Shown one piece after another: positions 14,058 through 58,581 of a stretch of DNA of 64,000 nt. Below the pieces are notes generated by a model, which was not told the DNA's origin, did not search any database, and worked only from the letters and a program-made list of their open reading frames with translations. The position numbers and the translations under genes were made by a program. How positions within the stretch are numbered: position 1 is the stretch's first letter; every line of letters starts with the position of its first letter. This DNA comes from Prochlorococcus sp. AG-469-F22 (GTDB lineage: Bacteria; Cyanobacteriota; Cyanobacteriia; PCC-6307; Cyanobiaceae), in NCBI GenBank assembly GCA_003211655.1, contig QCSC01000001.1:3967-67966 (forward strand), in the 5' to 3' direction.

Positions 14058-15094
14058 TATTCAATTCGAGGATCTAATATAGCAATTAAAATATCCACAA
14101 AAAGATTTAATGAGACTATTAGTAAAGAGGTGACAATTACAATTCCTTGAACAACAGTATAATCCCGTTGGGAAATAGCTTCATGTAACTTTAAAGCTAT
14201 CCCTGGCCATGAAAAAATAACTTCAAAAAGAAGCGCTCCTCCTGCTAAAGAAGCTATTGTTAAGCCTGAAATCGTAACAATAGGCAAAAGTGCATTAGGT
14301 AAAGAGTGATTAAAGATAATTTTCCTTCTTGAAATTCCTCTACATAAAGCTGCATTTACGTAATCACTTTTTAGTGTCTTGTCTAAATTTATTCTTAAAG
14401 ATCTACTAAAAATTCCGCTCAAAAGAAACCCAAGAGTTATTGAAGGAAGCGCAAGATGATATAAGCTTTCTCTTAAATAGATAAGATTATTATTTAGAAG
14501 ACTATCTAAAACTAGAAAGCCTGTAATTTTAGGTTGGCTATAAGTGATTGGGAACCTCCCACCAATTGGAAAAATTCTAAAATATACCGAAAAAATTAAT
14601 TGAGCTAAAATTGCCCCCCAGAAAGGTGGGATTGCATATGAAGAGATTCCTATTACTCTAGCAATGTAGTCTCCTTTTTTTCCTTTATTTTTTAAACCAA
14701 AAAAACCAAGAGGAAAGCCTATAAAGATTGCAAAGAATATTGAAAAGATACCTAGTTCTAAACTCGCTGGTAATGATTTAAGAATAATATCAAGAACCGG
14801 TTCTTGAGTACTTAAAGATTCTCCAAAATTGAAGTGCAAAATATTATTAATGTAAGAAAGATATTGACTAAGAAGAGATTCATTTAACCCTAATTTATTT
14901 CTAAGAATTTCTCTTGAAGCTTCATTAGCTCCAGATCCTAAAATTGCGTCAACTGGGTCTCCTGGCGCAACTCTCAACAAAATAAAAACCAATGTAGATA
15001 TAATCCACAACATTAAAGGTATTAAAGAAATCTTTAATAAAGCATAATTTAAAAGTTTATTAAGATCTCTACTCATTAATGAATTTGAGATCAC
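14054..15094 (-). CDS. dppB: Peptide ABC transporter permease
   Basis: APGDPV, EAA-like motif, QRDY.VVQG, LDPRI. Confidence 0.9.
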   Translation of the reverse strand: MISNSLMSRDLNKLLNYALLKISLIPLMLWIISTLVFILLRVAPGDPVDAILGSGANEASREILRNKLGLNESLLSQYLSYINNILHFNFGESLSTQEPVLDIILKSLPASLELGIFSIFFAIFIGFPLGFFGLKNKGKKGDYIARVIGISSYAIPPFWGAILAQLIFSVYFRIFPIGGRFPITYSQPKITGFLVLDSLLNNNLIYLRESLYHLALPSITLGFLLSGIFSRSLRINLDKTLKSDYVNAALCRGISRRKIIFNHSLPNALLPIVTISGLTIASLAGGALLFEVIFSWPGIALKLHEAISQRDYTVVQGIVIVTSLLIVSLNLFVDILIAILDPRIEY

Positions 15095-29527: not shown

Positions 29528-29719
29528 ATGTTGCTAAATATCACAAAGAAACAAACAAAATCCGAAGTAGATCCAACCCTACAAGCAAGGGTTAATAAGG
29601 ATTTATTTAATCAGTTTACAAAACTAGCTGAACATTACAAATGTTCTAATGCTGAATTACTAAGAGCCTTAATCAAAGACTGCTTAAAAAGGTTTCAGGA
29701 GCCTAGAAATGAGCAATGA
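29528..29719 (+). CDS. Ribbon-helix-helix/CopG-like DNA-binding protein
   Basis: LQARVNKDL...S.AELLRALI pattern; directly before the primase. Confidence 0.65.
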   Translation: MLLNITKKQTKSEVDPTLQARVNKDLFNQFTKLAEHYKCSNAELLRALIKDCLKRFQEPRNEQ

Positions 29720-32057
29720 AAGAATTTTAAATTGCTCAATTAGGATTCCTCATCTTGAATTAATAGAGTCTGGATTACCAAGTGAAGTCCATCAACGACT
29801 TAATTATCTCCATGTCACTAAAGAAGAAGCTTATAAATTGGTTGGTTATAAGCTTTCAGGATGGGTTGTACTTTTTTGTAATCTAAAAGGGAATCCATAT
29901 CTACATCAAGGCAAACCTTTTTACCGGCTCAAGCCAGAACCTGAACAATTAGAAGGAGATCATCCACCCAAGTATCTATCTCCAAAAGATGCTGGTTTCA
30001 GACCATATTTTTCACGTTTAGCTAAAGAAGAAAAGTACAAGACATGTAAGAAGTTATTTATAACAGAAGGTGAGAAAAAAGCTGATGCCCTAACCCATTA
30101 TGGTTTTCCTTGTATAGCTCTAAGTGGTGTCAGTAGCTGGAAAGATAAAAGGAGTGGAGAATCCAAACCACTTCCAGAATTAGAAGAATTCAATTGGAAA
30201 AACAGGCTAGTATATCTTGTCTTTGATTCAGATATTATTTCAAAAGTAGAAGTACTTCTTGCTTTAAAGAGCTTAAGTGAATTTCTAAAAGGTAAAGAAG
30301 CAAAGGTATTTATTATCCTTTTACCAAATGAGCTAAATGGCGGAAAAAATGGTGCTGATGATTTTTTAAAGCGACATGGTAAACAAGCATTCTCTGAACT
30401 CGTAAGAATTGCAAGGCCAGCTTTTCATTACTACAAAAGAAAGAAAGAGGAGGTATTTACTTGGAAGCCTGAACCTTCAGAGACACACCATATTGCATTA
30501 ATGACAAGTATTATCTTTCAAGATTTCTATGCTGAAAGATCTGGAATAGGTTTATTTCGATGGAAAGAAAAATACTGGGAAAAAGTAAAAGGTAAATCTA
30601 AAGAGGAAATCTTAAAGCCTTTGCATCGATGGTTAGATGTGATGGATTTCCATAAAAGAAGTTGTAGTCACATCTCATCAATTAAAGAAGAATTACTTGC
30701 ACGTTTAAATCAAGAGACATGGGATCCAACTCATTTAATAGCTTTCTCAAATGGCACTTTGGATATACGAACAAACAAGCTTTCGCATGGGCATAACTCA
30801 AAGGATCTCATCTCCTTCTTATTTCCTTTCCCTTTTGATCAATCAGCTCAGTGTCCAACATGGATAAATTTCTTACAAGAAACATTTCCTGAACAAGAAG
30901 TCCAAAACCTTTTAAGAGCTTCTTTTAAATGGACTATTACACCAAAGGATTCTGAACAGCCATTCCCGTATGAGGTCGCATTTGATGTTCACGGTCCTAG
31001 GGGATGCGGAAAAGGAACCATCTCTGAAGTACTTACAGCTTTATGTGGTGGAAGCCACGGTGCAGGAATTGTACGTAGTGAAAGCTTTAACAATTCCAAT
31101 TCTCTAGCAGCGTTAATAGGTAAGAAAATTGCCATTGATCCTGATTCATCTGGTCATATTAAAGATCCAGGGATTTTTAATTCTATTGTTAGCAATGAAC
31201 CAGTTGGAGTCCATTTTTTTTATCAAAATCGATTTGCAGTTCGTTTAGGTGTTGTTATTTGGCGATTCTATAATGATACTCCTGTTGCTCATGGTGGAGG
31301 TTTAGAAGGTATGGGTAGGAGATTGATTACCTTTAGAATTTCAAATAGTCCAAAAATACGTGATCCTTCTTTAAAAAAGAAATTACTACATGAGATAGCT
31401 GGGATATTTCAATGGTGCTGGACGATGGGCGAAGAAGAGATGGAAGAGACGTTTAAGAATAGAGGAAGAATTCCATCAATTCAAGAAGCAACAATTGAAA
31501 ACTTATTGGAATCACGACCAGTTTTGAGATTCTTGGTCGAGAAATATCAAGATGGGATTGAATTTATTTTAGGTAGAAATTTGTACCACGAATATCGAGA
31601 CTGGGCAAAAGATACAGGCCTCCAACCTGTTAAAGAAACCAAGTTCGGACTGGAGGTCAAGAAGGTGGTGGGTTGGGTGGTGAGTAGCAAAACAAAATAT
31701 GGTGTCAACTATCAAATCAAGCCTATGATTGATTTTAATTTGACCGATCACTTTGGATTTGAATGCATAGATGAAGGGTTGAACTCACCACCAGAACTTA
31801 CCCTCCACCCAAACTCACCACCAGTAAATCCATCTAATAGATATGATTCTCAAACAAAGGTGAAGAGTTTGAAGGGTTTACCTCTTTCTTTTAATCAAGA
31901 AAAAAGCAAAAATAAAAACTGTATATATAAAGGGGTGGAGCAAACTCACCATACCCAACACACTCAACACCAAGAGACATTAAATCTAGCTACTTATAAT
32001 ACTGCTGAGTTTGAAGATGATAGTGAGCCACATTGGGGGCCTCGGCCTGTTCCATAA
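29709..32057 (+). CDS. Phage/plasmid primase-helicase (DUF3854 Toprim + D5_N + SF3 ATPase)
   Basis: ITEGEKKA, VFDSD, KNGADD; AFSNGTLD, CPTW; GPRGCGKGT Walker A; C-terminal LY..Y..W wHTH. Confidence 0.9.
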   Translation: MSNERILNCSIRIPHLELIESGLPSEVHQRLNYLHVTKEEAYKLVGYKLSGWVVLFCNLKGNPYLHQGKPFYRLKPEPEQLEGDHPPKYLSPKDAGFRPYFSRLAKEEKYKTCKKLFITEGEKKADALTHYGFPCIALSGVSSWKDKRSGESKPLPELEEFNWKNRLVYLVFDSDIISKVEVLLALKSLSEFLKGKEAKVFIILLPNELNGGKNGADDFLKRHGKQAFSELVRIARPAFHYYKRKKEEVFTWKPEPSETHHIALMTSIIFQDFYAERSGIGLFRWKEKYWEKVKGKSKEEILKPLHRWLDVMDFHKRSCSHISSIKEELLARLNQETWDPTHLIAFSNGTLDIRTNKLSHGHNSKDLISFLFPFPFDQSAQCPTWINFLQETFPEQEVQNLLRASFKWTITPKDSEQPFPYEVAFDVHGPRGCGKGTISEVLTALCGGSHGAGIVRSESFNNSNSLAALIGKKIAIDPDSSGHIKDPGIFNSIVSNEPVGVHFFYQNRFAVRLGVVIWRFYNDTPVAHGGGLEGMGRRLITFRISNSPKIRDPSLKKKLLHEIAGIFQWCWTMGEEEMEETFKNRGRIPSIQEATIENLLESRPVLRFLVEKYQDGIEFILGRNLYHEYRDWAKDTGLQPVKETKFGLEVKKVVGWVVSSKTKYGVNYQIKPMIDFNLTDHFGFECIDEGLNSPPELTLHPNSPPVNPSNRYDSQTKVKSLKGLPLSFNQEKSKNKNCIYKGVEQTHHTQHTQHQETLNLATYNTAEFEDDSEPHWGPRPVP
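31772..31951. repeat. Iteron-like repeats at the primase 3' end (putative ori)
   Basis: AACTCACCACCAG at 31782 and 31812, AACTCACCA at 31943; TGAAG(G/A)GTT at 31772, 31861, 31870. Confidence 0.55.
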
Positions 32058-32060
32058 TAA

Positions 32061-32170
32061 TTTGGGTCCTTTCCAGAGGAAGTAGGTGGGTGATTTCGAG
32101 CCCCAAATTTCCCCTAGGTAAAAGACTGCGTAATTGGACACACTTTTACAATTTCCTCATAGGGAAAATG
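32061..32170 (+). other. GC-rich structured intergenic site with lambda cosQ-like GGGTCCTTTCC
   Basis: GGGTCCTTTCC at 32064-32074; TTTGGG/CCCAAA inverted ends; repeated AATTTCC..TAGG. Confidence 0.4.
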
Positions 32171-32221
32171 GGCTAGAATCGTTGTATAGCAATTAATCTC
32201 ACCTAATGCAAATTTTGTAAG

Positions 32222-32467
32222 ATGAAACCAAAAGCATTTCATATTGAAGCGTTTACAATTACCCAGACAGCTAAAAAGTTAGGCTATAGAAGCACCAAAA
32301 CAATCTACAGACTGGTTAATAGATATGTTTTAGAGGATTATATTTTTTTAGAAAAATCAGGGAGAATTTATCTAATATTAGAACCACCAAATCTTCCAAC
32401 TCTTGCAGAAAAGATCAAAGCAAATATTCAATTTAGAAGAAATAATATTATCAAAAGGAGTTTATAA
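32222..32467 (+). CDS. HTH DNA-binding protein (excisionase/AlpA- or Nu1-like winged HTH)
   Basis: TITQTAKKLGYRSTKTIYRL HTH pattern. Confidence 0.7.
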   Translation: MKPKAFHIEAFTITQTAKKLGYRSTKTIYRLVNRYVLEDYIFLEKSGRIYLILEPPNLPTLAEKIKANIQFRRNNIIKRSL

Positions 32468-32593
32468 TGAAGTTAAATAAGATTAGATAAAATTAAAAGA
32501 ATTAATTAGCTAAAACATTATTTTTTTTATTAGTTTATTGTTTGATTTGATTTTTTTTGACAGTATTTAATTAAGTGTGTAATTTTTTAAACA

Positions 32594-33784
32594 GTGACAA
32601 CTGAATCAAGTCAAAATTCTGAATTTGCAAGAAAACATCCCAGCGAAGGAATGGATGCCTTAGATAAAGAATCAAAATTACCTTTAAAAGGATGGGAAAG
32701 CGAAGTTGCTCGAGCTAAGGAATATGGTTTAGAAGCCGCTAAAAGTATAGTCGATAGAAAAATATCTACATTTTCAAGAGGAGAGTTACCTCATTTTGCT
32801 GGGATTAATACATTTATGAAAGCCCCATATGTTGAAAATGTAAATGAAGTAGGAAATTATGATGTTGCGATAGTTGGGGTACCGCATGATTCTGGAACTA
32901 CATATAGACCAGGAACAAGATTTGGTCCTCAAGGTATAAGAAAAATTTCTGCTCTCTATACTCCCTATAATTACGAAATGGGCGTTGACCTAAGAGAGCA
33001 AATTTCTATATGCGACGTAGGAGATATTTTTACAATCCCAGCAAATAATGAAAAAAGTTTTGATCAAATTTCAAAGGGCATCGCTCATATTTTTGCGAGT
33101 GGTGCGTTCCCAATCATATTAGGAGGAGATCATTCGATAGGATTCCCCACTGTAAGAGGTGTTTGCCGCCATTTAGGGGATAAAAAAGTTGGAATTATTC
33201 ATTTTGATAGACATGTAGATACTCAAGAAACAGATTTGGATGAAAGAATGCATACCTGTCCATGGTTTCATGCAACTAACATGAAAAATGCACCAGCCAA
33301 AAATCTCGTTCAACTAGGAATTGGAGGGTGGCAAGTCCCAAGAGAAGGAGTAAAAATTTGCAGGGAACGAAGTACGAATGTTTTAACAGTTACTGATATT
33401 TGCGATATGGGTTTAAAAGAAGCAGCAGATTTTGCTATTGAAAAAGCCACAGATGGAACTGACTGTGTATATATTTCTTTTGATATTGATTGTATTGATG
33501 CTGGATTTGTACCAGGAACTGGTTGGCCTGAGCCTGGAGGTTTGTTACCTCGAGAAGCACTAAAACTTTTAGAATACATAATTAGAAATGTAAATGTATG
33601 CGGACTTGAGTTGGTAGAGGTTTCGCCTCCATACGATGTAAGCGATATGACAGCTTTACTAGCAACCAGGGTTATTTGTGATTCCATCGCACATCTAGTA
33701 GTAAGTGGTCAGCTTCCAAGGAAATCAAAGCCAGAATGGATTTTTGATAAATGTAATATGGCTGTTGATAAAAAATGGAGATAA
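32594..33784 (+). CDS. gdmH: Ni-dependent guanidine hydrolase (ureohydrolase family)
   Basis: Long N-terminal arm (TFSRGELPHFAGINTF), GGDHS, DRHVD, HTCPW, SFDIDCID, PGTGWPEPGG (Trp where agmatinases have Thr); adjacent HypA/HypB paralogs and ABC system. Confidence 0.88.
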   Translation: MTTESSQNSEFARKHPSEGMDALDKESKLPLKGWESEVARAKEYGLEAAKSIVDRKISTFSRGELPHFAGINTFMKAPYVENVNEVGNYDVAIVGVPHDSGTTYRPGTRFGPQGIRKISALYTPYNYEMGVDLREQISICDVGDIFTIPANNEKSFDQISKGIAHIFASGAFPIILGGDHSIGFPTVRGVCRHLGDKKVGIIHFDRHVDTQETDLDERMHTCPWFHATNMKNAPAKNLVQLGIGGWQVPREGVKICRERSTNVLTVTDICDMGLKEAADFAIEKATDGTDCVYISFDIDCIDAGFVPGTGWPEPGGLLPREALKLLEYIIRNVNVCGLELVEVSPPYDVSDMTALLATRVICDSIAHLVVSGQLPRKSKPEWIFDKCNMAVDKKWR

Positions 33785-33790
33785 ATAATT

Positions 33791-34147
33791 GTGCATGAAG
33801 TAGATATGACCAAATGCTTGATTCTCTCTATGGAAGAATGGGCAGAGAGAAAAAACAAAGAAAAAATAGTTGTTGAAAAAATTAATCTTAAGATTGGGGA
33901 ATTTACTTGTGTAGAGCCAATTTCGTTAATTAATACTTTTAATGCTGCTGTGTTTGGCTCATGGTTAGATTCTTCTGAGATTATTATTGAAACTATTCCT
34001 TTTGAGGGCAGATGCTCTAAATGTAAAAATTCATATTATCCAAAGAAAGATAATGGTTATAAATCTCCTTGTTGTAATTTAAATTTGGAAGAAATTATTA
34101 GAGGTAGAGAGTTGAAAATTTCATCTATTGATTTCAAAGAAAAGTAA
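33791..34147 (+). CDS. ghaA: HypA-family Ni chaperone (GhaA)
   Basis: MHE N-terminus, CSKC...SPCC, GREL. Confidence 0.88.
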   Translation: MHEVDMTKCLILSMEEWAERKNKEKIVVEKINLKIGEFTCVEPISLINTFNAAVFGSWLDSSEIIIETIPFEGRCSKCKNSYYPKKDNGYKSPCCNLNLEEIIRGRELKISSIDFKEK

Positions 34148-34189
34148 GAGTTTACTATCTAGAATAGATAAGTATTTTTATATATATAA

Positions 34190-34870
34190 ATGCATCTACC
34201 GCTTTCAGACAAAATTGAATTAAATATTCTTCATAAAAATAGCCACCAAGCTGAAATAAATAAAAAAAAGTTTAATGAGTGTAAGGTACTATGTCTAAAT
34301 ATAATGAGTAGTCCAGGTTCAGGTAAAACAAAATTACTTGAAAAAACTTTAGAAGATTTATCAAAAAAAATTAAGGTTGCCGTCTTGGAAGGTGATATGA
34401 CAACCACCTTAGATGCTGCGAGGTTAGAGAAATTAAATATTCCAGTTGTCCCAATTACAACTGGAAGAGCATGTCATCTAGATGCAAATATGGTTAAAGG
34501 TGGATTTAAAATTTTAGAATCAAAAATTAATCCTACTTTACTAGACATTTTATTAGTAGAAAATGTGGGTAATTTAGTTTGTCCAGCAGAATTTGAGATA
34601 GGGGAACATTTTAAAGTCGCACTTTTGAGTATTACTGAAGGGGAAGATAAACCTCTGAAGTATCCAGTTATGTTTCGAGAAGCAGATTTAGTTTTGATTA
34701 CTAAAGTAGATTTATTGCCACATCTAAATTTTGATATTGATGAATTAAAATCAAATATTTCTTTAACGAATCCTAAGGCAGAGGTGATAGAAATTTCTTC
34801 AATATCAATGACTGGATTTGATTTATGGAAAAATTGGATAAGTAAAAAGATTCAAGAATTTAAAAAGTAA
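34190..34870 (+). CDS. ghaB: HypB-family Ni chaperone GTPase (GhaB)
   Basis: SSPGSGKT, ACHLDA, ENVGNLVCPA, EGEDKPLKYP. Confidence 0.92.
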   Translation: MHLPLSDKIELNILHKNSHQAEINKKKFNECKVLCLNIMSSPGSGKTKLLEKTLEDLSKKIKVAVLEGDMTTTLDAARLEKLNIPVVPITTGRACHLDANMVKGGFKILESKINPTLLDILLVENVGNLVCPAEFEIGEHFKVALLSITEGEDKPLKYPVMFREADLVLITKVDLLPHLNFDIDELKSNISLTNPKAEVIEISSISMTGFDLWKNWISKKIQEFKK

Positions 34871-34903
34871 GGAAGAAATATAAATATTAGAAATTTTCTA
34901 AAA

Positions 34904-34917
34904 GTATCCATCATTAC
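34904..34917 (+). promoter_or_regulatory. Putative NtcA binding site
   Basis: GTA-TCCATCAT-TAC, 54 nt upstream of the SBP start. Confidence 0.55.
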
Positions 34918-34971
34918 AACTTTATATTTATTTTTTTTTAAGTATTGATATAACGTAATCCTTTTTTTTTA

Positions 34972-35970
34972 ATGTTCAAAAAGTTTAAAGCTTTTGCCTT
35001 TTCTTTGATTGCTTTAGTTCTTGCAATTTCATTGAGTACACTTTCAAGTCCAGCTGCTCCAAAAGGTGATCCTATTACTCTTGGATATAGTAACTGGGCA
35101 GGTTGGTGGCCATGGGCAATAGCTGTTGATCAAAAAATGTTTGAAAAAAATGGAGTTAATGTAGAGATGAAATGGTTCGATGGATATGTACAATCCATGG
35201 AAACTTTTGCTGCTGGTAAAATTGATGGAAATTCTCAAACCCTAAATGACACAATTTCTTTCCTACCTGGAGAGAATGGTGGAGAAGTAGTTGTACTAGT
35301 AAATGATAATTCTGCAGGTAACGATCAAATAATCGCAGATAAATCAATTAAAAGTGTTGCCGATTTAAAAGGAAAAACTGTGGCAGTTGAAGAAGGAGTT
35401 GTAGATGATTTTCTTTTGGTCCTAGCTTTGAATGATGTTGGGCTCACAAGAGATGATGTAATCATTAAGGGACTTCCAACTGATCAGGCTGCTACTGCAT
35501 TCGCAGCAGGTAAAGTAGATGCAGTTGGGGCTTTCCCTCCATTTACGGGCACCGCAATGAAGAGACCTGGAGCAAGAGTTATTGCAAGTTCAAAAGATTA
35601 TCCAGGAGCAATTCCAGATTTATTAGCTGTTAGTGGAGATTTAATCTCGGAAAGACCCGATGATGTTCAAAAAATAGTAAAAACTTGGTGGGATGTAAGA
35701 GCATTCATGGAAAAGAATCCAAGAAAGTCTGCAAAAATCATGGCTAAAAGAGCTGGAATTCCAACAAGAGAATATAAACAATACAAAGGTGGAACAAGGT
35801 TCTTTTCATTAGAAGAAAATTTAGAAGCTTTTAGTGGTGGATTTGGTATGAAACATATGCCTTATGCGGCGAAACAAATGGCAGACTTTATGGTTAAGGT
35901 GGGATTTATCCCTGAAAAACCTGATATGAGTAAATTATTCAATTCTTCTTTTGTAAAAAATATTAGTTAA
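34972..35970 (+). CDS. ABC transporter substrate-binding protein (SsuA/NMT1-like; probable guanidine binder)
   Basis: Signal peptide; GYSNWAGWWPW, QTLNDT, DNSAGND; gdmH context. Confidence 0.85.
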   Translation: MFKKFKAFAFSLIALVLAISLSTLSSPAAPKGDPITLGYSNWAGWWPWAIAVDQKMFEKNGVNVEMKWFDGYVQSMETFAAGKIDGNSQTLNDTISFLPGENGGEVVVLVNDNSAGNDQIIADKSIKSVADLKGKTVAVEEGVVDDFLLVLALNDVGLTRDDVIIKGLPTDQAATAFAAGKVDAVGAFPPFTGTAMKRPGARVIASSKDYPGAIPDLLAVSGDLISERPDDVQKIVKTWWDVRAFMEKNPRKSAKIMAKRAGIPTREYKQYKGGTRFFSLEENLEAFSGGFGMKHMPYAAKQMADFMVKVGFIPEKPDMSKLFNSSFVKNIS

Positions 35971-35984
35971 TAAAAAGAATTAGA

Positions 35985-36806
35985 ATGATTAGTTCAAAAT
36001 TAATCAAGAGGGATAAATCTTTTTTTTTATCCCTCTTTTCATTTGGTACTGAACCAAAAAAATTAAATAAAACATTCCTTCAAGTTGCATCACTTTTGCT
36101 GCCTCTTTTACTTTGGTCAGTAATTTGTCAACTAAAACTGGTAAGTGAATTGTTTTTGCCATCTCCCTTAGCAGTTTTTTATTCACTTTTAGATATGGCT
36201 GAAAGTGGGATCTTATTCGAAGATATATTTGCAAGTACTGGTAGGGTTTTTGCAGGTTTTATAATCGCTACAATTTTATCTGTTCCTTTAGGTATTGCGA
36301 TGGGGTCCTTCCCCTCTTTTTGTGCATTATGCGAACCTTTGATTGCAATGCTTAGATATATGCCTGCGGCTGCTTTTACTCCTTTACTGATTATTTATTT
36401 AGGAATTGAAGAAGCTCCAAAAATTGCGTTAATTTTTATTGGAACAGTTTATTTTAATGTTTTGATGGTTATGGATTCAGTAAAATTTGTTCCTAGGGAG
36501 CTTATAGAAACAACTCTTACTTTAGGTGGTAATACAAAAGATTTATTATTCAAAGTAATAGCAAGATATTCTTTACCAAGTATTATTGATACTCTAAGAA
36601 TCAATATTGCAACTTCATGGAACCTAGTAATCGTAGCAGAATTAATTGCGGCAGAAGTTGGTTTAGGAAAAAGGATTCAATTAGCTCAGAGGTTTTTTCG
36701 TACAGAACAAATATTTGCAGAATTAATAGTTCTCGGGATAATTGGATTCACTCTAGATATGAGCTTTAGATTTCTTTTAAGACGTACATGCAAATGGGCT
36801 GTTTAA
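35985..36806 (+). CDS. ABC transporter permease (SsuC/TauC-like)
   Basis: FLPSP, RYMPAAAF.PL, VAELIAA..GLG. Confidence 0.9.
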   Translation: MISSKLIKRDKSFFLSLFSFGTEPKKLNKTFLQVASLLLPLLLWSVICQLKLVSELFLPSPLAVFYSLLDMAESGILFEDIFASTGRVFAGFIIATILSVPLGIAMGSFPSFCALCEPLIAMLRYMPAAAFTPLLIIYLGIEEAPKIALIFIGTVYFNVLMVMDSVKFVPRELIETTLTLGGNTKDLLFKVIARYSLPSIIDTLRINIATSWNLVIVAELIAAEVGLGKRIQLAQRFFRTEQIFAELIVLGIIGFTLDMSFRFLLRRTCKWAV

Positions 36807-37568
36807 ATGAAACTGGATGTCAATAATATTTCAAAATACTTTGGGGAAGGCTCTAATAAAAAAAAGGCAATTGATGAAGTTAGTTTTTCAATAAGTTCTG
36901 GAGAGTTTAAAACTCTTGTAGGGAGTTCTGGATCAGGTAAAAGTACTATATTGAGGATTATTGCTGGACTAGAAAATCCATCAAAAGGAAACGTAAAAGT
37001 TGATGGAAAAGTTGTTCATGGTCCTGGCTTAGATCGAGGAATGGTTTTTCAGAAATATAGTCTTTTTCCATGGCTTACCGCAGAAGAGAATATTGCATTT
37101 GGAATGAACTTGAATTCTTATAAATTAAAAGAAATAAAATATCGAACATCTTATTTACTTGAAGTAGTGGGACTTCAAGATTCAGCTTCTAAGTATCCAA
37201 AAGAATTATCTGGAGGAATGCAACAAAGGGTTGCTATTGCTAGAGCTTTGGCGACAAATCCAAAAATCTTGCTTTTAGATGAACCTTTTGGAGCCTTGGA
37301 CTTGCAGATCAGAGAATCTATGCAGAGTTTTCTATATAAATTGTGGAAAAAAACTTCATTGACTGTTCTTCTTATTACACACGATATTGAAGAAGCATTA
37401 GCGCTATCTCAGCGAATATGTATTTTGGCTCCTAATCCTGGAAGAATAATAAAAGAAGTTAACGTTGATTTACAAAAAGATGATTTAAATAAATTGAGGC
37501 TGGATCCAAATTTCTCAAAGTTGAGATATGAGTTATCTGATTTTCTAAGAAGTATCCAAAAGAATTAA
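36807..37568 (+). CDS. ABC transporter ATP-binding protein (SsuB/TauB-like)
   Basis: GSSGSGKST, LSGGMQQR, LLLDEPFGALD, ITHD. Confidence 0.93.
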   Translation: MKLDVNNISKYFGEGSNKKKAIDEVSFSISSGEFKTLVGSSGSGKSTILRIIAGLENPSKGNVKVDGKVVHGPGLDRGMVFQKYSLFPWLTAEENIAFGMNLNSYKLKEIKYRTSYLLEVVGLQDSASKYPKELSGGMQQRVAIARALATNPKILLLDEPFGALDLQIRESMQSFLYKLWKKTSLTVLLITHDIEEALALSQRICILAPNPGRIIKEVNVDLQKDDLNKLRLDPNFSKLRYELSDFLRSIQKN

Positions 37569-38593
37569 TGTCTAATAAGAGTTTTTTGCCTACATGGCTT
37601 TATAACGATAAACAAATATTTAATTTTGAATTAGAGAAATATTCAAAAAACTTTTGGCATCCATTGATTTTTGTTGGAGAAATTAAAGCTGGAGAAATAT
37701 TAGAAAAAAAATTCTTAAAGCAATCATTATTTATTTCATGTTCACAAAATAATTCAATAAATGTTTTTAAAAATAGATGCCCGCATCGTGGCTCAGAACT
37801 ACTTTTGCTAAAAACAAAAGATAATCCCTCTAAAAGTATTTTCTGTCCCTATCATGGCTGGACTTTTGATGGCTTTGGTGAACTTAAAACACTGCCATTA
37901 AAGGACGATTTTGAGATCAAAGTAGAATTAGGTGATTATTTCTTAGAAAAAGTAAATTCTTTAGTAAATGGACCTTTTATTTGGATTAATTTCAGCAATC
38001 AACCAATATCTATAGATGATCAAATTGACCTTGTTGTCGGAAATTGTAACGATGAATGGAATATAAATTATGGTATATTTTCTGAATTTTCTAATACATT
38101 AAATTGTAATTGGAAAATAGCTCATGATAATACACTAGATGACTATCATGTCGCGGTCGCTCATAAGAATACATTACATAAAGAACAAGGTCCAATTAAA
38201 AACTATAAGTATTTTTTTAGTAAATTTTGTAATGTTCTTGTTACTCCAATGAATAGTAGAGAAAATTTATATACTTTTGGATTATTACCATGGACGCATA
38301 TTATAGTTTGGCCTGGTAGAGGTATTTTGTTAATAAGTTATCCTCCTCAAAGAATTGATCAATGTAGTTTGGAAATAAAATTAGCTTCGGCAACTCTATG
38401 TACAAAAGATTTAGAAGATTGGAAAATTAATATCTTAAATTTTCTTAGGGAAGATAAAGTTATTGTCGAATCAGTTCAAAAGTCTTATAGGGGGAAATTT
38501 AAACTTGGACCCCCTAATAGACTTGAACAGAGAATTATTCACTGGCAAGAAGTTTATAAGGAGTTTTTGCAGGCATATGGAATTTCTTTTTAA
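37568..38593 (+). CDS. Rieske non-heme iron oxygenase, alpha subunit
   Basis: CPHRG...CPYHGW Rieske ligands; NWK..DN.LDDYHV..AH and distal ED for mononuclear Fe; TAATG coupling to the ATPase. Confidence 0.88.
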   Translation: MSNKSFLPTWLYNDKQIFNFELEKYSKNFWHPLIFVGEIKAGEILEKKFLKQSLFISCSQNNSINVFKNRCPHRGSELLLLKTKDNPSKSIFCPYHGWTFDGFGELKTLPLKDDFEIKVELGDYFLEKVNSLVNGPFIWINFSNQPISIDDQIDLVVGNCNDEWNINYGIFSEFSNTLNCNWKIAHDNTLDDYHVAVAHKNTLHKEQGPIKNYKYFFSKFCNVLVTPMNSRENLYTFGLLPWTHIIVWPGRGILLISYPPQRIDQCSLEIKLASATLCTKDLEDWKINILNFLREDKVIVESVQKSYRGKFKLGPPNRLEQRIIHWQEVYKEFLQAYGISF

Positions 38594-38663
38594 AAAAGAA
38601 AATATTGCAAAGATACATATTGAAAATATAGGTAACCCAAAGATAATTGCTTCTACAAAAATT

Positions 38664-38697
38664 AGCTAATTGCCCCTTATTGTTGATCGACTGTCAA
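38664..38697 (+). repeat. Cargo-boundary repeat, copy A
   Basis: AGCTAATTGCCCCTTATTGTTGATCGACTGTCAA; 31/34 identical to copy C. Confidence 0.85.
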
Positions 38698-38751
38698 ATT
38701 AATCTGTTTAAAAATATCTACTGTTAATATGAATTAAATTTTTAAATTAAG

Positions 38752-39009
38752 TTGGTTTACTTTAAGAGAGAGTTTATTAAATCCCTTAAAATAAAAGGCT
38801 CTATATTTTTAATTGTGATAATTATTGGATTTATTTACTCAAGTCCAAAATCAAGGGTAATTATTGCAAATTCTTTTACTTCTTCAGCCAAATTTTTAAA
38901 TGAAACTGTCGAAACAAAAAATAAAGATAGTTGGTTTTCTGAACCAGATTTCGTTTTCAGTATTAGGTTAAGATTACGAGAATTTTTAAGAGGAACTCAA
39001 AGAGGTTGA
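38752..39009 (+). CDS. Small hypothetical membrane protein between repeats A and B
   Basis: One TM helix followed by YSSPKSR...A..L. Confidence 0.55.
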   Translation: MVYFKREFIKSLKIKGSIFLIVIIIGFIYSSPKSRVIIANSFTSSAKFLNETVETKNKDSWFSEPDFVFSIRLRLREFLRGTQRG

Positions 39010-39017
39010 AAAAGAAA

Positions 39018-39057
39018 TAATTGCCCTTTATTGTAGATGACTATCAATTACTAACTA
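39018..39057 (+). repeat. Cargo-boundary repeat, copy B
   Basis: TAATTGCCCTTTATTGTAGATGACTATCAATTACTAACTA; degenerate copy of A/C. Confidence 0.8.
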
Positions 39058-39180
39058 TTTGCGGTGCAAGTAGTAAGCGTTTCATTTAATTCCACCCATA
39101 ACAATATTCGAATCTATCTTTTTTGCATTGCAAAAATGCTTCATAGCGATTATCTGCTATACCTTGCCATACTTTGCTAA
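39044..39180 (-). pseudogene. Relic of two coupled small genes (3' end ...CKKDRFEYCYGWN* then MKRLLLAPQIVSN*)
   Basis: TAA-ATG junction like the one at 41760-41765; the leader runs into repeat B; the upstream part has no start. Confidence 0.5.
39061..39089 (+). repeat. 29-bp direct repeat, copy 1 (encodes MKRLLLAP on the minus strand)
   Basis: GCGGTGCAAGTAGTAAGCGTTTCATTTAA, identical to 41738-41766. Confidence 0.9.
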
Positions 39181-39310
39181 CTTAAAACGCTTAAAAAATT
39201 TAATCAATATCTCCAAAAAAAGATTTAGAGGGGATCGAAAACTTTAAAACGCTAACTTGAATTTTTATTTTTAGGTATTTTTACTAACATAAACTATAAA
39301 TTAGATGTAA

Positions 39311-40534
39311 ATGTCAATTAGGATTTTAAAAAGTTTTTTATTTCTAGCTTTATCCTCTCCTTTTATAGGGCAGGCAGAAACAAAGCAAGAAATCAAATAT
39401 CAATCCAATAGTTTTAATTCTTCAAATAGCGTTATTGCAAAGCAGGAATATGAAGTAGAAAAACCTTCATACATTATTGATAGAAATAAATGTAATGTTT
39501 TTGAAAACAAAAGATCTTCTACTTGTGTTGGACCAGAAAAGGCTTATCAACCTAAAGATGAATTAGATGAATACATAATTAAAGGAGCAACTTATTCGAC
39601 TAAGTTTGTTCCTTTAATGAATGATGGCGCAGAAGGTAGTGAATATACTAATTTAATGGCTAATGATGGTAAAAGATTATTGGTAGATGCTGGATTTGAT
39701 TTTGTAAATAGTACTGCTAATAGTGGAATTCAAAGTATTCCATTTTTTGCTCAAACATCTGTTCATATTTCTGGCGGCACAGAATCAGATACTAGTTTCT
39801 CAGTTAATAGCTTAATGAAGTTAGGAGAGCTAGCGGTTGATGATGAGGGTGATATAAAAACTCTCGCATTTTCTCAGGCAAGATTTGCTACTGCCACTAA
39901 TGCAGATGGTTCTACTACTAACTTAGGGTTAGGAATAAGACATCGTCCTGATGATGTATCAATGATTGGTGCTAACGCTTTCTGGGATTACAGAATGACA
40001 GACTATAGTGATGCTCATAGCAGACTTGGACTTGGAGGAGAATATCTTTGGAAAGATTTTGAATTTAGAAACAACTGGTATATGGCAATAACTGATGAAA
40101 AAGAAATCTTAATAAAAAATGTCAAATATACAGAAAAAGTTGTAGACGGATGGGATGCAGAAATTGGTTATAGGCTTCCAAGTTATCCAGAACTTGCTTT
40201 CTTCGTTAGAGGGTTCAACTGGGACTATAAATATACTCAAGATAATTCTGGATTAGAAGGATCTCTTAGTTGGCAAGCTACACCTCATGTTGGACTAGAA
40301 GCTTTTATTTCTAATGAAATTTCTACGGCCTCTACAAAAGTAAACACTGATTTGCCTGGAACTAATGAGACTTTCTTTGGATTAAGGATGAATTTAACAG
40401 GAAATCCAGTTAAATTTGCCAAAAATGATTACAAGAATAATATGATCACTCAAATGACTCAACCGGTAAAACGTAAATATGATGTTTTACTTGAAAGGAA
40501 AACTGGTTGGTCCGTTAATTTCGGTGGAAATTAA
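39311..40534 (+). CDS. Inverse autotransporter (intimin/invasin) beta-barrel domain protein without passenger
   Basis: NLGLGIR, GANAFWDY, HSRLGLGGEY, GWDAEIGYRLPSYPEL, V.RKYDVLLE; ends ~11 aa later. Confidence 0.85.
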   Translation: MSIRILKSFLFLALSSPFIGQAETKQEIKYQSNSFNSSNSVIAKQEYEVEKPSYIIDRNKCNVFENKRSSTCVGPEKAYQPKDELDEYIIKGATYSTKFVPLMNDGAEGSEYTNLMANDGKRLLVDAGFDFVNSTANSGIQSIPFFAQTSVHISGGTESDTSFSVNSLMKLGELAVDDEGDIKTLAFSQARFATATNADGSTTNLGLGIRHRPDDVSMIGANAFWDYRMTDYSDAHSRLGLGGEYLWKDFEFRNNWYMAITDEKEILIKNVKYTEKVVDGWDAEIGYRLPSYPELAFFVRGFNWDYKYTQDNSGLEGSLSWQATPHVGLEAFISNEISTASTKVNTDLPGTNETFFGLRMNLTGNPVKFAKNDYKNNMITQMTQPVKRKYDVLLERKTGWSVNFGGN

Positions 40535-40565
40535 TCTAAGTATTCTTTAAAGCACTCCAATAAAA

Positions 40566-41561
40566 ATGAAATTATTTACCAACGAATTTTTGAACTTACC
40601 AACTTTGAAAAGAAGCAAATTCTTGTTTTTTATAGCAGCATCTTTTTCTTCAATAATTGTCAGTTCAGAACCAACATACTCAAATGAAATAGCAAAATGT
40701 AGGGATTTAACTTTGCCATCATTAATTTCAGATGGTGGTCGAGTTAATGGAGGAAGGGGGTGTACTATGTCTCCAACTAGTTATAAGGTAAAAGCATTTG
40801 AATTAGGTCTTTGTACAGAAGCTAATAACCCATTTAGTACAACGGGCTTAGACACCTCTGGGTGTTTTGCTGTATGGAGTGATCCCAATGGTTATGAGGC
40901 GAATCTGGTTTCAGCAAATGGATCTGCTGCTGTTGAAACCTTAGATTCATCTAATGCAATAAGACCACCAGCAGGTACGTATAAACATGCTTATGTTATT
41001 ATCGATGACACAATTAAGATAAGAGCTACTTTAGAATTAGCTGGTGAGACTTGGAAAACATCAAATAAAGATGCTCATAAAGAGTATTTCCCTACTGATA
41101 GAGATGAGGGTCAAATAGCCTCTTTAGGTAAAGTATCTACAGAGGATGCAGACGAAGCCGAAACAAGATTAGGTTTTTTTAATGTTACTGGCAATGATGC
41201 CGACGATAAATGTTATTTACAAGACTATGTTGTTGACAGTGACATAACCTTAAATGCACTTATGTTGAAATCTGATAAGAAAACTATCGCTACTAAAGCT
41301 ACTTCTACAAGTAATTTTAATTATGATAATACGCTTTGTTCTGGTTCAAAATATATAGCAGGAGTAGAAACTTTTACAACTCCAATTGTTGTTACTGAGA
41401 ATACAACTTCAGCGTCTTTAACTTTTGATACAACAGATGTAGGTGTTTGGGTAGAAGGTTATGATGGTTATAGCAGCATCACCTCAGATAGAGGACCAGG
41501 AGGATCTGACAGGCCCTATTTTGATATGGGGGCTTTTATTATAAGGATATCTGTTAATTAA
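40566..41561 (+). CDS. Secreted beta-rich Cys-containing hypothetical protein
   Basis: Signal-like N-terminus, six Cys, Thr/Ser/Asp-rich; 31 bp after the barrel gene. Confidence 0.75.
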   Translation: MKLFTNEFLNLPTLKRSKFLFFIAASFSSIIVSSEPTYSNEIAKCRDLTLPSLISDGGRVNGGRGCTMSPTSYKVKAFELGLCTEANNPFSTTGLDTSGCFAVWSDPNGYEANLVSANGSAAVETLDSSNAIRPPAGTYKHAYVIIDDTIKIRATLELAGETWKTSNKDAHKEYFPTDRDEGQIASLGKVSTEDADEAETRLGFFNVTGNDADDKCYLQDYVVDSDITLNALMLKSDKKTIATKATSTSNFNYDNTLCSGSKYIAGVETFTTPIVVTENTTSASLTFDTTDVGVWVEGYDGYSSITSDRGPGGSDRPYFDMGAFIIRISVN

Positions 41562-41618
41562 TTTATATTTAAATGGTATTCCAAAAGTATTTTTAATAAT
41601 CGATTTAAAAACTATAAT

Positions 41619-41762
41619 TCATTCCTCTTGATAAGACCCTTTTGGAAAATTAGAAGCTCTCCAAGAGTCAAATGAGCATTCTAAATTAATAATGCCATTA
41701 TCTTTACTACTACAACCAAAAAGCAAAGTTAATAAAAGCGGTGCAAGTAGTAAGCGTTTCAT
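41619..41762 (-). CDS. Small lipoprotein-like ORF (47 aa), possibly truncated; not in ORF track
   Basis: MKRLLLAPLLLTLLFGCSSKD... lipobox-like LFGC; TAA-ATG coupled to the upstream gene. Confidence 0.6.
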   Translation of the reverse strand: MKRLLLAPLLLTLLFGCSSKDNGIINLECSFDSWRASNFPKGSYQEE

Positions 41763-41766
41763 TTAA
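41738..41766 (+). repeat. 29-bp direct repeat, copy 2
   Basis: Identical to 39061-39089. Confidence 0.9.
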
Positions 41767-42074
41767 AAATAAAATCTCTTTGCAACTTTTCTATCAAATC
41801 TTTCTTTTTCGTAAATTTTATTTTCTTCAATATTTTGATATTCCCAACCTAAGAATTGCCTTGTTTCTTTATCGTATTTACAAAATCTAGCTTTCTTAGA
41901 ATAAGTACCCCAAGGACTTTTGACCTTATAACTAATTCCCCCAATTATCCACTTATTGCAAGCCATTTCTGCTTCAGTAAAAGAACCATATCTTCCAAAC
42001 CAATTTGACCAATTTGCATTAACGGCAGTAGGTAGAGCGAGGGCTGCTAGTAGTGGGAGTAATAAGCGTTTCAT
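41763..42074 (-). CDS. Small secreted hypothetical protein
   Basis: MKRLLLPLLAALALPTAVNA signal peptide; two Cys. Confidence 0.75.
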   Translation of the reverse strand: MKRLLLPLLAALALPTAVNANWSNWFGRYGSFTEAEMACNKWIIGGISYKVKSPWGTYSKKARFCKYDKETRQFLGWEYQNIEENKIYEKERFDRKVAKRFYF

Positions 42075-42475
42075 TTCTTTTTAAGTTGCTTTTTTGTATT
42101 CGTAACAAGTCCAACTAATATGAGAATCTTAATTAGGATTCTATATCTAGCTGCAAATGCGGCTATTGGCTCTAAAAAGTCTTTTACTTCTTGTGGAAGT
42201 TGAGGGTAAACATCTTGTATATACCAAGGCAAAACAATTATTATAAACACCCCAAGAGCAGTCATTAGGACTACAGTTTTTAAAATTTCTTTTGCCTTCT
42301 CTTTCTTTGGTTTGTGATAGTCCTTGTAAAGTTCAATAAATTCATCCCATACAGAATCTGGCACTTGAGATACAGATACAAGACCTTCTAATTTAACGGC
42401 TAAATCCCAATCATATTTGTATGAAGCTTCTAATAGATTCTGGAACTCCGAATCAGGCATTTCCCTTAAGTTCAT
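42071..42475 (-). CDS. Hypothetical membrane protein
   Basis: Soluble N-terminus plus two hydrophobic segments; ATGA overlap with the next gene. Confidence 0.65.
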   Translation of the reverse strand: MNLREMPDSEFQNLLEASYKYDWDLAVKLEGLVSVSQVPDSVWDEFIELYKDYHKPKKEKAKEILKTVVLMTALGVFIIIVLPWYIQDVYPQLPQEVKDFLEPIAAFAARYRILIKILILVGLVTNTKKQLKKK

Positions 42476-42488
42476 ACTCTAATCCAAT

Positions 42489-42517
42489 AAAAAAAAGGAG
42501 CTAATTGCTCCTTATTT
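42489..42517 (-). terminator. Intrinsic terminator after the ligase gene (overlaps repeat C)
   Basis: Minus strand AAGGAGC-aatta-GCTCCTT followed by a T-run. Confidence 0.7.
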
Positions 42518-42542
42518 TAGATCGACTGTCAATTATTAACTA
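42499..42542 (+). repeat. Cargo-boundary repeat, copy C (abuts the ligase stop codon)
   Basis: AGCTAATTGCTCCTTATTTTAGATCGACTGTCAATTATTAACTA. Confidence 0.85.
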
Positions 42543-43295
42543 ATACTTAATCGCCATCTGCCAATGAGGGTAAGTTTCATAGGATTTTTCTCTAATTAAT
42601 TGTAATTTTCTAGAATTTAATTTAACTACTATTCCATCAGTAGGATAATTATTAAATAACTTTTTATCAGTCCATTGTTTACGGTACATTTCCACCTGAC
42701 TTGTAAAGTTAAGGCTTTTATATTCTGGAATTGTAAAACCTAATTTTTTTAAATATTGAAGGGAATCATGTTGGTTAAGTCGTCCGTTAATTATCTGAAA
42801 AGAACAAAAGCTAAGATGATCACTTTTACTATCAGCAGCCCGAAGATAACCTCCTGCCTGTCTTTGGCTAAAGCTGGGTCTGTCATACTCTGCTGGTGCA
42901 TATAATTCGCCTCTAATCTGGATTAAACCTTTAATATTTATCTTAGATGGTACATCTGGAATATCTTTTATTTTATTAGTAACATCTCCTCCTTTCCTTG
43001 CTATTGCCTTAACTAAATCTCCATCTATATATTGAATAGCAATGGCACATCCATCAATCTTAGGTTCAATTATTAATCTAGTATCGGACAATAATCCATC
43101 TAAAAAATCATCAATAGAATCTTTAGGCAAACTTGGCAATGGCAATATAGTTTTTTTAGAAAAGTAATTTGCTTCTGGATTAACTCTAAATAAATTGGCT
43201 TCAAGTTTATCGAACTGTTCATCAGTAATTAAAGGAGTTCCCATCCTGTAATTATGGTCGTACCATTCAATCCGTTCTTCAAGATATGTAGTCAT
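42540..43295 (-). CDS. NAD-dependent DNA ligase, adenylation domain only
   Basis: Y...P.ITDEQFD, EPKIDG, IRGE, TDGIVVK, MAIKY*; no OB/HhH/BRCT domains. Confidence 0.88.
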   Translation of the reverse strand: MTTYLEERIEWYDHNYRMGTPLITDEQFDKLEANLFRVNPEANYFSKKTILPLPSLPKDSIDDFLDGLLSDTRLIIEPKIDGCAIAIQYIDGDLVKAIARKGGDVTNKIKDIPDVPSKINIKGLIQIRGELYAPAEYDRPSFSQRQAGGYLRAADSKSDHLSFCSFQIINGRLNQHDSLQYLKKLGFTIPEYKSLNFTSQVEMYRKQWTDKKLFNNYPTDGIVVKLNSRKLQLIREKSYETYPHWQMAIKY

Positions 43296-43307
43296 AATTA
43301 AGCAGCT

Positions 43308-45160
43308 TTAATTTTTTCCAATAATTACAGTAGTTTTACCGTCTAATATTGGTCTATTTTTTTCTGCAATTTGCTCTTTCATTACTTCTTTAACATCTAT
43401 TCCTAATACATAAGCATCTTCCGCTCTTTGATCTAAACCAATATATTTATTAGTTTTAGTGTCATACATTCCAATACCAATATCAAATTTTATAGGGCTT
43501 TCATACTTTCTAGCTTTACTTACCTTTTCTGGAATTAAAACCTCAACAGCAAAACCAATCTCTTTTAAAAATAAATTAAATTCTGATCTTTTTTCTTTTA
43601 TAAATCTATCTTTATCTAAAAATAATTTAACTTTATCTTGAATATCTTTTGCAGCTTGTTTACCTGATTTTTTTCTTTGTAGATTCTGTAAATCTAATAT
43701 TGCTCGCTGATATTTTGTTTCCGCCTGTTTATATTCTTCTGTAGCTTCAAGTTGTTGTTTTTCTAAATTTATTGGAACTGCTCTGCCTTTAGCAAAATAT
43801 TCCGATTCTGCTTTTTTAAAATTTTCTAATTTAGCTTTTAATTGATTTTTTTCATCTAAAGCTTTTAATCTTTTATTTTTTTGTATTTCAACTTCTTCCT
43901 CGTGTTTTTCATCAGTCAAATAATCTTCCCATCTAAATAACATTATTCGATTTAAGATTTCTGATTCATTATCAATATTGTTATGAATTTGCTTGTAAGG
44001 AACAGTATTAGTAGCTTTGCAATTTAAATCTCCGTCAGCTTTAGCATTGTGACATTGTAAAAAAGACATTTCTACTTCTACTTTTTCTCCACCTTTAGCC
44101 CATTTTTTGGTGCCAACAATTCTTCTTCTTGTAATAACATCCATGCGACCACCACAATGACCGCAGCGTATTACTCCTTGAAATAAATTAACTGTTTTAT
44201 CTGTAGGAGATGTAAAAGTTCTATTTAATCTTCTGTTTTCTTTTGCTCCTTGAACTCTTTTAAATTGTTCTGGAGTAATATTGGAGGGAATGGATAGCAA
44301 ACAACTCCTCTCTTAGTTTTTTCTCCTGTAACTGCTCTATTTTTAAGAATGCACGTCGAAATTGCATCTTTACTCAAATATTTATTTTTTCCATTTAAAG
44401 GACTTTTTACACCTTCCTTCTTTAAGATTTTCGCAGTTTTTCCTATACCTATTGTTTCGGCCATATTAAATATTCTTTGTATTAATTTCTTCTCTTCTTC
44501 AAAAGCTTTTGCTTTACCTGTCTTTTCATCTATATAAATCCAAAAGGGATATAAATTACCTTTAGTTCATTTTTTTCTAGGTTTAAAAGAGCTAAAGTCT
44601 CCCTCTGAAAACTGTTTAGCTATTTTTTCTTCAGAACCATTTTTTCTATTTGCTTTTTCTTCCCACTCACTAGAAGCACCTAAGCTTGCACCTAAAAATT
44701 GAAACCATTGAGCATCATCTGTGCCGTTAAATGGTTTTCCTCCTAATTGAACAAATGCCAATTCCAAGCCACTATCAAGAATTGTATTAAGGAGTTTTGT
44801 TGATCCTCTAGCTCTAGATCTAGTTAATCGACTCCAATTTTCTACAACTAAACACGTTCCTCTTGGAATTTCTCCTTTTTCAGCAGCTTTAATTAATGAA
44901 GATAATGCTCCAATTTCACTATTTTTGCCCCTACCACTTACTCCTAAATCTCGAAATTCAAATCCATCTAAATTTTCATAGTCTGGATGACTTTCTAGCC
45001 AATTAAGATAATCTTGCTCCTGTCGCTCTATTCCTGATTTGTTTTCTGTTGTTTGAGCTTTAGTGCTAACTCGGATATATGAGACAGAAAATTTAGTGGC
45101 AACTGGAGTTACTTCACTATTTGTTATAGAAGTTTTTGTAGTTGTTTCTGCCATTGCCAT
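43308..45160 (-). pseudogene. Large serine recombinase (integrase) interrupted by an in-frame TGA (44567-44569) and a 1-nt frameshift (~44280)
   Basis: YIRVST..Q, DLGVSG, VENWSRLTR catalytic domain; YPFWI and LKNRAVTG recombinase domain; CGHCGG...C...C Zn ribbon; coiled coil. Confidence 0.88.

Positions 45161-57417: not shown

Positions 57418-58581
<1,164 letters not shown>

Follow-up and report, generated by a model that had tools for sequence, protein, structure and literature searches.

The window analysed here, a 64,000-nucleotide stretch of the genome of Prochlorococcus sp. AG-469-F22, carries a guanidine cluster, gdmH-hypAB-gimABC, whose last gene (positions 37568-38593) is the subject of this work. 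Sequence and gene context suggest that this gene encodes a candidate Rieske methylguanidine hydroxylase standing in for MgdH, a reading to which we give a probability of about 0.55; dimethylguanidine is perhaps also a substrate. Whatever the substrate, guanidine is probably the product. The initial annotation had proposed that the Rieske enzyme frees guanidine from substituted guanidines as part of an undescribed organic nitrogen pathway. Gene context supports the release of guanidine, and the substrate is narrowed here to methylguanidine. The claim of an undescribed pathway does not stand, since methylguanidine demethylation feeding guanidine catabolism is known from the MgdH/MgdL pair of Vreelandella boliviensis (Sinn 2025, PMC12508155). 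The operon, the position of the Rieske gene within it, and the demethylation reaction are already known; a Rieske enzyme in that role would be the new part.

The reading frame is open throughout (341 amino acids, no internal stops). Its product contains the ligands of a Rieske [2Fe-2S] cluster (C-x-H ... C-x-x-H; C71, H73, C93, and H96), the 2-His-1-carboxylate triad of a mononuclear iron site (H194, H199, and D296), and a bridging acid, D191; H194, H199, D296, and D191 align with H208, H213, D323, and E205 of CntA. The protein matches Pfam families PF00355 (E 4.6e-15) and PF00848 (E 1e-9). None of the metal ligands varies among the 76 homologues aligned, so the set of Rieske motifs, rightly described before as intact, is not due to chance. 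The predicted structure (predicted local distance difference test score 89.6) has a two-domain Rieske oxygenase fold that is closest to CntA (template modelling score 0.78-0.81, Z 30.4, root-mean-square deviation 2.7, 322 aligned residues), with Stc2 next at a Z of about 29, i.e., within about 1.5 Z of CntA. CntA is the top sequence match too (E 1.7e-17, about 21-23% identity).

The kinship with GbcA, Stc2, and CntA that the initial annotation had drawn is not supported beyond the fold, because the residue at CntA position 203, which sorts group V enzymes, is a threonine here (Thr189, in 76 of 76 sequences). According to the accessible part of PMC7948474, Tyr203 is the pi-cation residue defining group Va. 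Membership in group Va (CntA, CMO, OxyBAC), which needs Tyr or Phe at this position, and in group Vb (GbcA, Stc2), which needs Asn, was therefore rejected; the best NCBIfam match, the GbcA model NF058607, scored 77 bits against a cut-off of 670. The group V Cys-x-x-Cys pair beside the iron, present in CntA and Stc2, is likewise not found, its places being taken by Asp192 and Val195. Pocket residues were mapped onto CntA by sequence alignment at 23% identity, not by coordinates, and on this basis CntA Cys206, which faces the substrate ammonium at about 4.4 Å in the part of PMC10952381 available to us, corresponds to Asp192 in 146 of 146 sequences, CntA Asn270, a polar contact, to Ile or Leu, and CntA Tyr225 and Phe319 to the retained Y213 and F292. 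An acid instead of an aromatic residue would suit a hydrogen-bonding cation such as guanidinium.

Among 48 picocyanobacterial loci, a gene for an ATP-binding cassette (ABC) ATPase lies immediately 5' of the Rieske gene in all 46 that have upstream DNA, and gdmH is at most 6.5 kb away in all 39 that have 7 kb or more of it. In the window's family, 41 genomes were sampled, and the Rieske gene was found in 11 of the 12 genomes with gdmH and in none of the 29 without it. The co-occurrence of this clade with gdmH, which had been suggested as a check, thus holds at the 39 picocyanobacterial loci; the copies with no guanidine link are a sub-branch of five members and a few that occur singly. The association had been thought new but is in print: the accessible text of Doré 2023 (PMC10119275) notes CK_00002251, a putative Rieske protein encoded downstream of the guanidinase cluster in picocyanobacteria, as a feature that sets them apart from Synechocystis, whose operon, in line with the initial annotation, has no Rieske gene. 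CK_00002251 has the same position and distribution as the gene studied here and is almost surely of the same family, a judgement based on position and on the strains in common rather than on compared sequences. The same text describes it only as a putative iron-sulfur protein and, as far as it is accessible, proposes no catalytic role or substrate.

A wider sample comprised 401 genomes of the class, 40 of which matched a sister-group profile at E 1e-60 (genomes and loci are designated below by our G and L handles). Two were excluded because they lack the family motif (G474, which also fell outside the clade in a quick tree, and G504). Of the remaining 38 genomes, 31 have gdmH, and paired DUF1989 (cgdAB-type) genes were found in six of the other seven, lying within a few kb of the Rieske gene in five; genes of a guanidine hydrolase or of the carboxylase pathway are thus present in 37 of 38, and G489 has neither. 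Since 158 of the 189 genomes with gdmH lack the Rieske gene, the latter is an accessory. There are 26 non-picocyanobacterial copies, four of them cut by contig ends. The 22 readable copies lie in gdmH clusters (nine), carboxylase clusters (five), a riboswitch-led importer module without gdmH (two), and elsewhere (six). Each carboxylase cluster combines two DUF1989 genes with a gene for a biotin carboxylase (about 1200 amino acids); three have allophanate hydrolase as well, and the four that were scanned all have a guanidine-I riboswitch. Over all contexts, guanidine-I riboswitches were detected in six of eight scanned loci (L108, L116, L119, L120, L128, and L130), in five of eight further ones (L109, L111, L117, L118, and L131), and in three of seven (L027, L029, and L036). 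Linkage of the Rieske gene to two unrelated guanidine-degrading routes makes guanidine the likely product. At L112 (7363-12850), the Rieske copy is the last gene of an operon that also encodes an isochorismatase-family hydrolase and a binding protein of another kind; a metallo-hydrolase gene lies alongside, and gdmH is on another contig.

An unannotated gene of 270-283 amino acids directly adjoins the Rieske gene in five genomes from three genera (G436, G420, G607, G589, and G074). In a by-eye comparison with part of the published MgdL alignment it matched motif by motif; P0394, a row of that alignment at E 5.7e-18, is 72% identical to the neighbour at L120. The catalytic D-x-R pair (D43 and R45) is invariant in 25 of 25 rows, and the predicted model is a beta-barrel, with yeast Hri1 the nearest structure. 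From these features we assign the neighbour to the MgdL family. A profile of it matched in 7 of 40 Rieske-family genomes versus none of 40 others, all of which have gdmH; two non-adjacent copies lie in unrelated surroundings. At L116 and L117, a riboswitch-led run of same-strand genes ends with the ABC importer, Rieske, and MgdL-like genes, while gdmH is elsewhere. No MgdH-sized 2-oxoglutarate dioxygenase was found among the 52 of 103 unassigned neighbours scanned, where a 226-amino-acid AlkB-like gene in L028 was the only related one. With an MgdL-like gene adjacent and no MgdH seen, the Rieske gene in some relatives thus occupies the place of MgdH.

The GdmH of the window is near-identical to the Synechocystis enzyme (7esr) over residues 14-396, including the metal and specificity motifs (756 bits), while other ureohydrolases, the Nitrospira enzyme excepted, score 173 bits or less. 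In the accessible part of PMC11410670, the Nitrospira GdmH orthologue released significant amounts of urea only from guanidine and agmatine, methylguanidine being in the panel. Given an orthologue without significant methylguanidine activity, a demethylase would be needed. In the binding protein, W42, W45, D118, F188, and D216 have the spacing of the five guanidinium-binding residues proposed for GimA in the available text of PMC12704784. A binding protein co-varying with the Rieske gene was also considered, and no such pattern was seen.

Rieske homologues are 70-98% identical within Prochlorococcus, 34-40% in other picocyanobacteria, and 25-30% in the sister group from other cyanobacteria; past the sister group there is a drop to generic Rieske enzymes, and only 10 of 1.84 billion representatives matched at E 1e-30 or better. 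In the quick tree (71 rows; 17 near-duplicate, partial, or long rows were excluded), the picocyanobacterial and sister groups form one clade of 47 rows (Shimodaira-Hasegawa-like approximate likelihood ratio support 99), which identifies the family, as far as sequence comparison goes, as a cyanobacterial clade. Sponge-associated actinobacterial relatives that share a CDYH motif (L051-L055 and L066) form a separate clade with other gene contexts and were not informative. A nested sub-branch of five rows is not linked to guanidine genes, and in four of them (L048, 749-2895; L134, L135, and L137) the Rieske copy is directly 3' of an NNMT/GntF-like N-methyltransferase gene; this branch looks like a later recruitment. 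Near the L048 copy lie an aminotransferase gene and genes resembling a glycosyltransferase and a condensation domain, which together may form a small biosynthetic cluster.

The ratio of nonsynonymous to synonymous substitution rates (dN/dS) of the Rieske gene is 0.20-0.25, versus 0.03-0.10 for its six neighbours, and no stops were found in the 24 Prochlorococcus matches scored. The gene is under purifying selection. A decaying passenger at the operon end would show the highest dN/dS of the seven genes, as is observed, and the long Prochlorococcus branch of the tree would also fit; this explanation is nevertheless barely credible, since dN/dS is far below 1, all 24 matches are free of stops, and the same position is held across several cyanobacterial families.

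The stop codon TAA of the ATPase gene occupies positions 37566-37568 and the ATG of the Rieske gene 37568-37570, so the TAATG overlap noted earlier is real. Each of the other 23 Prochlorococcus loci that include the junction has three bases between the two genes; among 46 relatives, only two repeat the 1-base overlap, and the remaining spacings range from -4 to +43 bases. The exact overlap is a local feature, close spacing of the two genes is general, and the translational coupling proposed from the overlap in the initial annotation is rejected as a conserved feature.

Table 1. Features of the window discussed in the text, with positions and the basis of each assignment.
Feature	Position	Strand	Basis or remark
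Candidate methylguanidine hydroxylase, Rieske non-heme iron oxygenase, alpha subunit only, 341 amino acids	37568..38593	+	Motifs, Pfam, fold, dN/dS
TAATG stop-start overlap of ABC ATPase and Rieske genes	37566..37570	+	Real here, not conserved
gdmH, nickel guanidine hydrolase	32594..33784	+	Best solved-structure match 7esr, E 7.8e-227; PF00491
hypA-like nickel chaperone (GhaA)	33791..34147	+	PF01155
hypB-like nickel chaperone (GhaB)	34190..34870	+	TIGR00073 above cut-off
GimA-type binding protein	34972..35970	+	Five proposed guanidinium-binding residues at GimA spacing
ABC permease (GimB-type)	35985..36806	+	PF00528
ABC ATPase (GimC-type)	36807..37568	+	PF00005
Primase/D5 helicase of tycheposon-like element	29709..32057	+	PF12965, PF08706, PF19263
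Large serine recombinase, broken (in-frame stop and frameshift)	43308..45160	-	PF00239, PF13408 in two open reading frames; three-frame read
NAD-binding domain, FNR-like gene, outside element	57523..57873	-	PF00175 E 5.9e-28, sole match in assembly

Reductase, ferredoxin, and beta-subunit families gave no match among the 17 proteins scanned in the element at 29709-45160, in agreement with the earlier statement that the element has no reductase. A motif scan for a dedicated reductase over 104 family loci (some of them repeats of one genome) detected one ferredoxin-like gene and no FNR-like gene, and in the Pfam analysis of the 52 scanned neighbours redox genes were single and non-recurring. The window assembly, 59% complete, contains three Fer2 matches and one FNR-type match (Table 1), which is possibly part of the electron supply. 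Such Rieske enzymes of phototrophs typically run on photosynthetic ferredoxin.

From the context, cofactor motifs, fold, and purifying selection described above, we infer the following scheme of import, substrate binding, electron donation, and product decay. The GimABC importer would bring in methylguanidine besides guanidine, and the invariant Asp192 would hold the guanidinium group by a salt bridge, where CntA uses pi-cation stacking on Tyr203. With O2 and two electrons from photosynthetic ferredoxin, the N-methyl group would be hydroxylated to give N-(hydroxymethyl)guanidine, which would then break down to formaldehyde and guanidine, spontaneously in lineages in which no lyase gene was found, such as that of the window, and via the MgdL-like neighbour where present. 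The half-life of N-(hydroxymethyl)guanidine is over 1 h (PMC12508155). GdmH would then hydrolyse the released guanidine and provide nitrogen for the cell.

Several points, besides the alignment-based mapping of the pocket, weigh against methylguanidine hydroxylation. All 70 sequences of the sister branch (L108-L112 and L116-L138) have Cys at the bridging carboxylate position; if Asp192 took over the bridging role in that group, as it might, the argument from the pocket would be weaker. Operons that carry the Rieske gene and operons that lack it show no difference in the pocket of the binding protein, even if a GimA-type pocket that stays unchanged favours a small substrate. Genome-level co-occurrence overstates the association, since gdmH is common (189 of 401) and related genomes are not independent, and the six readable non-picocyanobacterial copies found elsewhere do not adjoin guanidine genes. 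At L128 and L130 the Rieske gene lies just upstream of the riboswitch, and at L119 and L120 the Rieske and MgdL-like genes are divergent from the riboswitch-led genes; riboswitch control of the Rieske gene is therefore not general. The window assembly and 12 genomes of the window's family that are complete or nearly so yielded no MgdL-like gene. The MgdL-like proteins of cyanobacteria are only distantly related to the MgdL that was assayed, and members of the MgdL family are also found apart from guanidine genes (L079, L158, and L159). The glutathione-dependent formaldehyde dehydrogenase TIGR02818 was not found in seven complete marine-type family genomes, 12 partial Prochlorococcus genomes, or the window assembly, but 15 of the 20 other family genomes have it, among them all five in which an MgdL-like gene is adjacent. 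No measurement of methylguanidine in seawater appeared among the listed results of the literature search. As to the wider role of the lyase family, the gammaproteobacterial locus L079 (14399-20404) combines a Rieske gene, a desaturase, a distant MgdL-like gene, an aldehyde dehydrogenase, and an aminotransferase, and the MgdL family may, judging from this cluster, serve other hydroxylation pathways.

That FrmA and MgdL were not found in the marine lineages would fit an aldehyde other than formaldehyde, as expected from CntA-style cleavage of a larger N-substituted guanidine (guanidinoacetate, taurocyamine, guanidinobutyrate, agmatine, arginine, or creatine), in which hydroxylation beside the guanidino nitrogen would release an aldehyde together with guanidine (or methylguanidine). 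The closest match in both sequence and fold is CntA, which cleaves a C-N bond, and the relatives at L112, L119, and L120 adjoin hydrolases and a different binding protein. We nevertheless consider a larger substrate unlikely: the binding protein retains the small GimA pocket, the polar contact N270 of CntA is Ile or Leu here, and no aldehyde dehydrogenase was present among the neighbours scanned; a demethylase, Stc2, comes close behind CntA in fold. The assayed MgdL is narrow for N-(hydroxymethyl)guanidine (PMC12508155).

The cysteine at the bridging position outside picocyanobacteria, the N-methyltransferase-linked branch with its apparent biosynthetic context, a copy at L122 that adjoins a xanthine/uracil-type permease, and the many gdmH genomes without the Rieske gene would also fit another nitrogen compound (a cyclic guanidine or a purine or creatinine oxidation product), guanidine itself, or an iron-sulfur redox accessory as the business of this protein; Doré et al., in the accessible text (PMC10119275), read the Rieske protein only as an iron cofactor of the system. 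We regard these possibilities, taken together, as improbable. The mononuclear site and pocket lining are wholly invariant at about 25-40% overall identity, the GdmH of the characterised operon requires nickel chaperones only, and the MgdL-like neighbours indicate a hemiaminal product.

Of 39 picocyanobacterial loci, 15 have within the operon a gene for a GMAS-like ligase (TIGR03105; best solved match, glutamate-methylamine ligase). Such ligases may capture methylamine, and their presence also hints at methylated substrates. Their genes are found at L036 at 5875-7239 and 14398-15645, and others occur in or by the guanidine clusters L116, L117, L119, L120, L123, L124, L162, L165, and L178, with or without a Rieske gene. 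In a methylamine branch of the pathway, the ligase would make gamma-glutamylmethylamide, which the Rieske enzyme would demethylate to glutamine. This would account for the ligase in the picocyanobacterial operons and beside several other copies, but is very unlikely: TIGR03105 was not found in seven single-contig marine-type genomes that carry the Rieske gene or in six other family genomes, while it is present in gdmH clusters without the Rieske gene (L165 and L178), so the ligase looks like a separate accessory. At L036 (11225-14322), as in many freshwater picocyanobacteria, a TIM-barrel gene, a desaturase-like gene, and a PRK07581 hydrolase gene follow 3' of the Rieske gene.

The cluster lies in a tycheposon-like element. 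The tycheposon traits of the 29709-45160 interval are the primase/helicase and the broken serine recombinase; the only tRNA is 14 kb off, and no attachment repeat was found. A small putative excisionase (32222-32467) and a ligase-like fragment are also present. No element genes were found beside the cluster in 24 other Prochlorococcus loci, from which the window copy has diverged at a synonymous distance (dS) of about 0.7-0.9; the accessible main text of the tycheposon preprint does not mention guanidine cargo. No guanidine-I riboswitch was matched in the Prochlorococcus copies scanned (the window, L002, and L003), and no exact NtcA box lies within 160 bases 5' of gdmH in the window (32468-32593) or in Prochlorococcus L002-L025; many Synechococcus and Cyanobium copies differ from Prochlorococcus in these signals. 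RNA-library contigs from four studies overlap parts of all seven genes; they cannot show transcription, strand, or level, and were not used as evidence. Downstream of the cluster, positions 39311-41561 hold an inverse-autotransporter beta-domain gene (PF11924) followed by a secreted-looking 331-amino-acid protein without a Pfam match, and dispersed 29-41-base repeats (38657-38697, 39009-39089, 41738-41766, and 42492-42532) match many other contigs of the assembly.

The MgdH/MgdL system resembles the one proposed here in that an operon for guanidine degradation that includes an ABC importer is extended by an O2-dependent iron hydroxylase (PMC12508155), and MgdL-family genes adjoin five relatives of the window's Rieske gene. 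The likeness is functional only: MgdH is a 2-oxoglutarate/Fe(II) dioxygenase of unrelated sequence and fold, whereas the Rieske-type enzyme needs external reductant, and the window's lineage has no MgdL gene found and uses GdmH, not a carboxylase. CntA (group Va; PDB 6y8j, 6y9c, and 6zgp) shares the ligand spacing, the lack of a beta subunit, and the Tyr225/Phe319 pair (Y213/F292), and differs in Tyr203 (Thr), in Cys206/Cys209 (Asp192/Val195), and in having a CntB-type reductase gene, none being nearby here. Stc2 and GbcA (group Vb) are also alpha-only Rieske enzymes and carry out oxidative N-demethylation of a cationic amine, the reaction type proposed for the window enzyme, which, unlike them, has Thr and not Asn at position 203, no Cys pair, and no partner reductase. 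In comparison with the Synechocystis gdmH-ghaAB-gimABC operon (PMC12704784, accessible part), the six upstream genes are orthologous and the binding pocket spacing is identical, but the Rieske gene is absent there, and no guanidine-I riboswitch is detected in the window. In the literature covered, mainly freely accessible papers, we found none assigning a substrate to this family and none in which a Rieske enzyme has the role of a methylguanidine hydroxylase; the accessible parts of PMC12186494 and PMC12704784 do not mention Rieske proteins.

Tentatively, and at somewhat less than even odds, this cyanobacteria-specific Rieske family may represent the first methylguanidine demethylase driven by ferredoxin, replacing MgdH without being homologous to it; it would give Prochlorococcus and Synechococcus of nitrogen-poor, iron-replete oceans access to methylated guanidines as a pool of organic nitrogen, and its non-picocyanobacterial branch may move electrons across subunits without the canonical bridging carboxylate. 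If so, the MgdH reaction would have been solved a second time by an unrelated enzyme, and a Rieske site would be known in which Asp, not an aromatic residue, binds the cation. A gene that, according to the accessible text of PMC10119275, tracks nitrogen-poor, iron-replete waters among the most abundant phototrophs of the sea would gain a function. There would also be a reason for the absence of the cluster from low-iron regions although GdmH uses nickel, and methylated guanidines would join the nitrogen sources within reach of marine picocyanobacteria.

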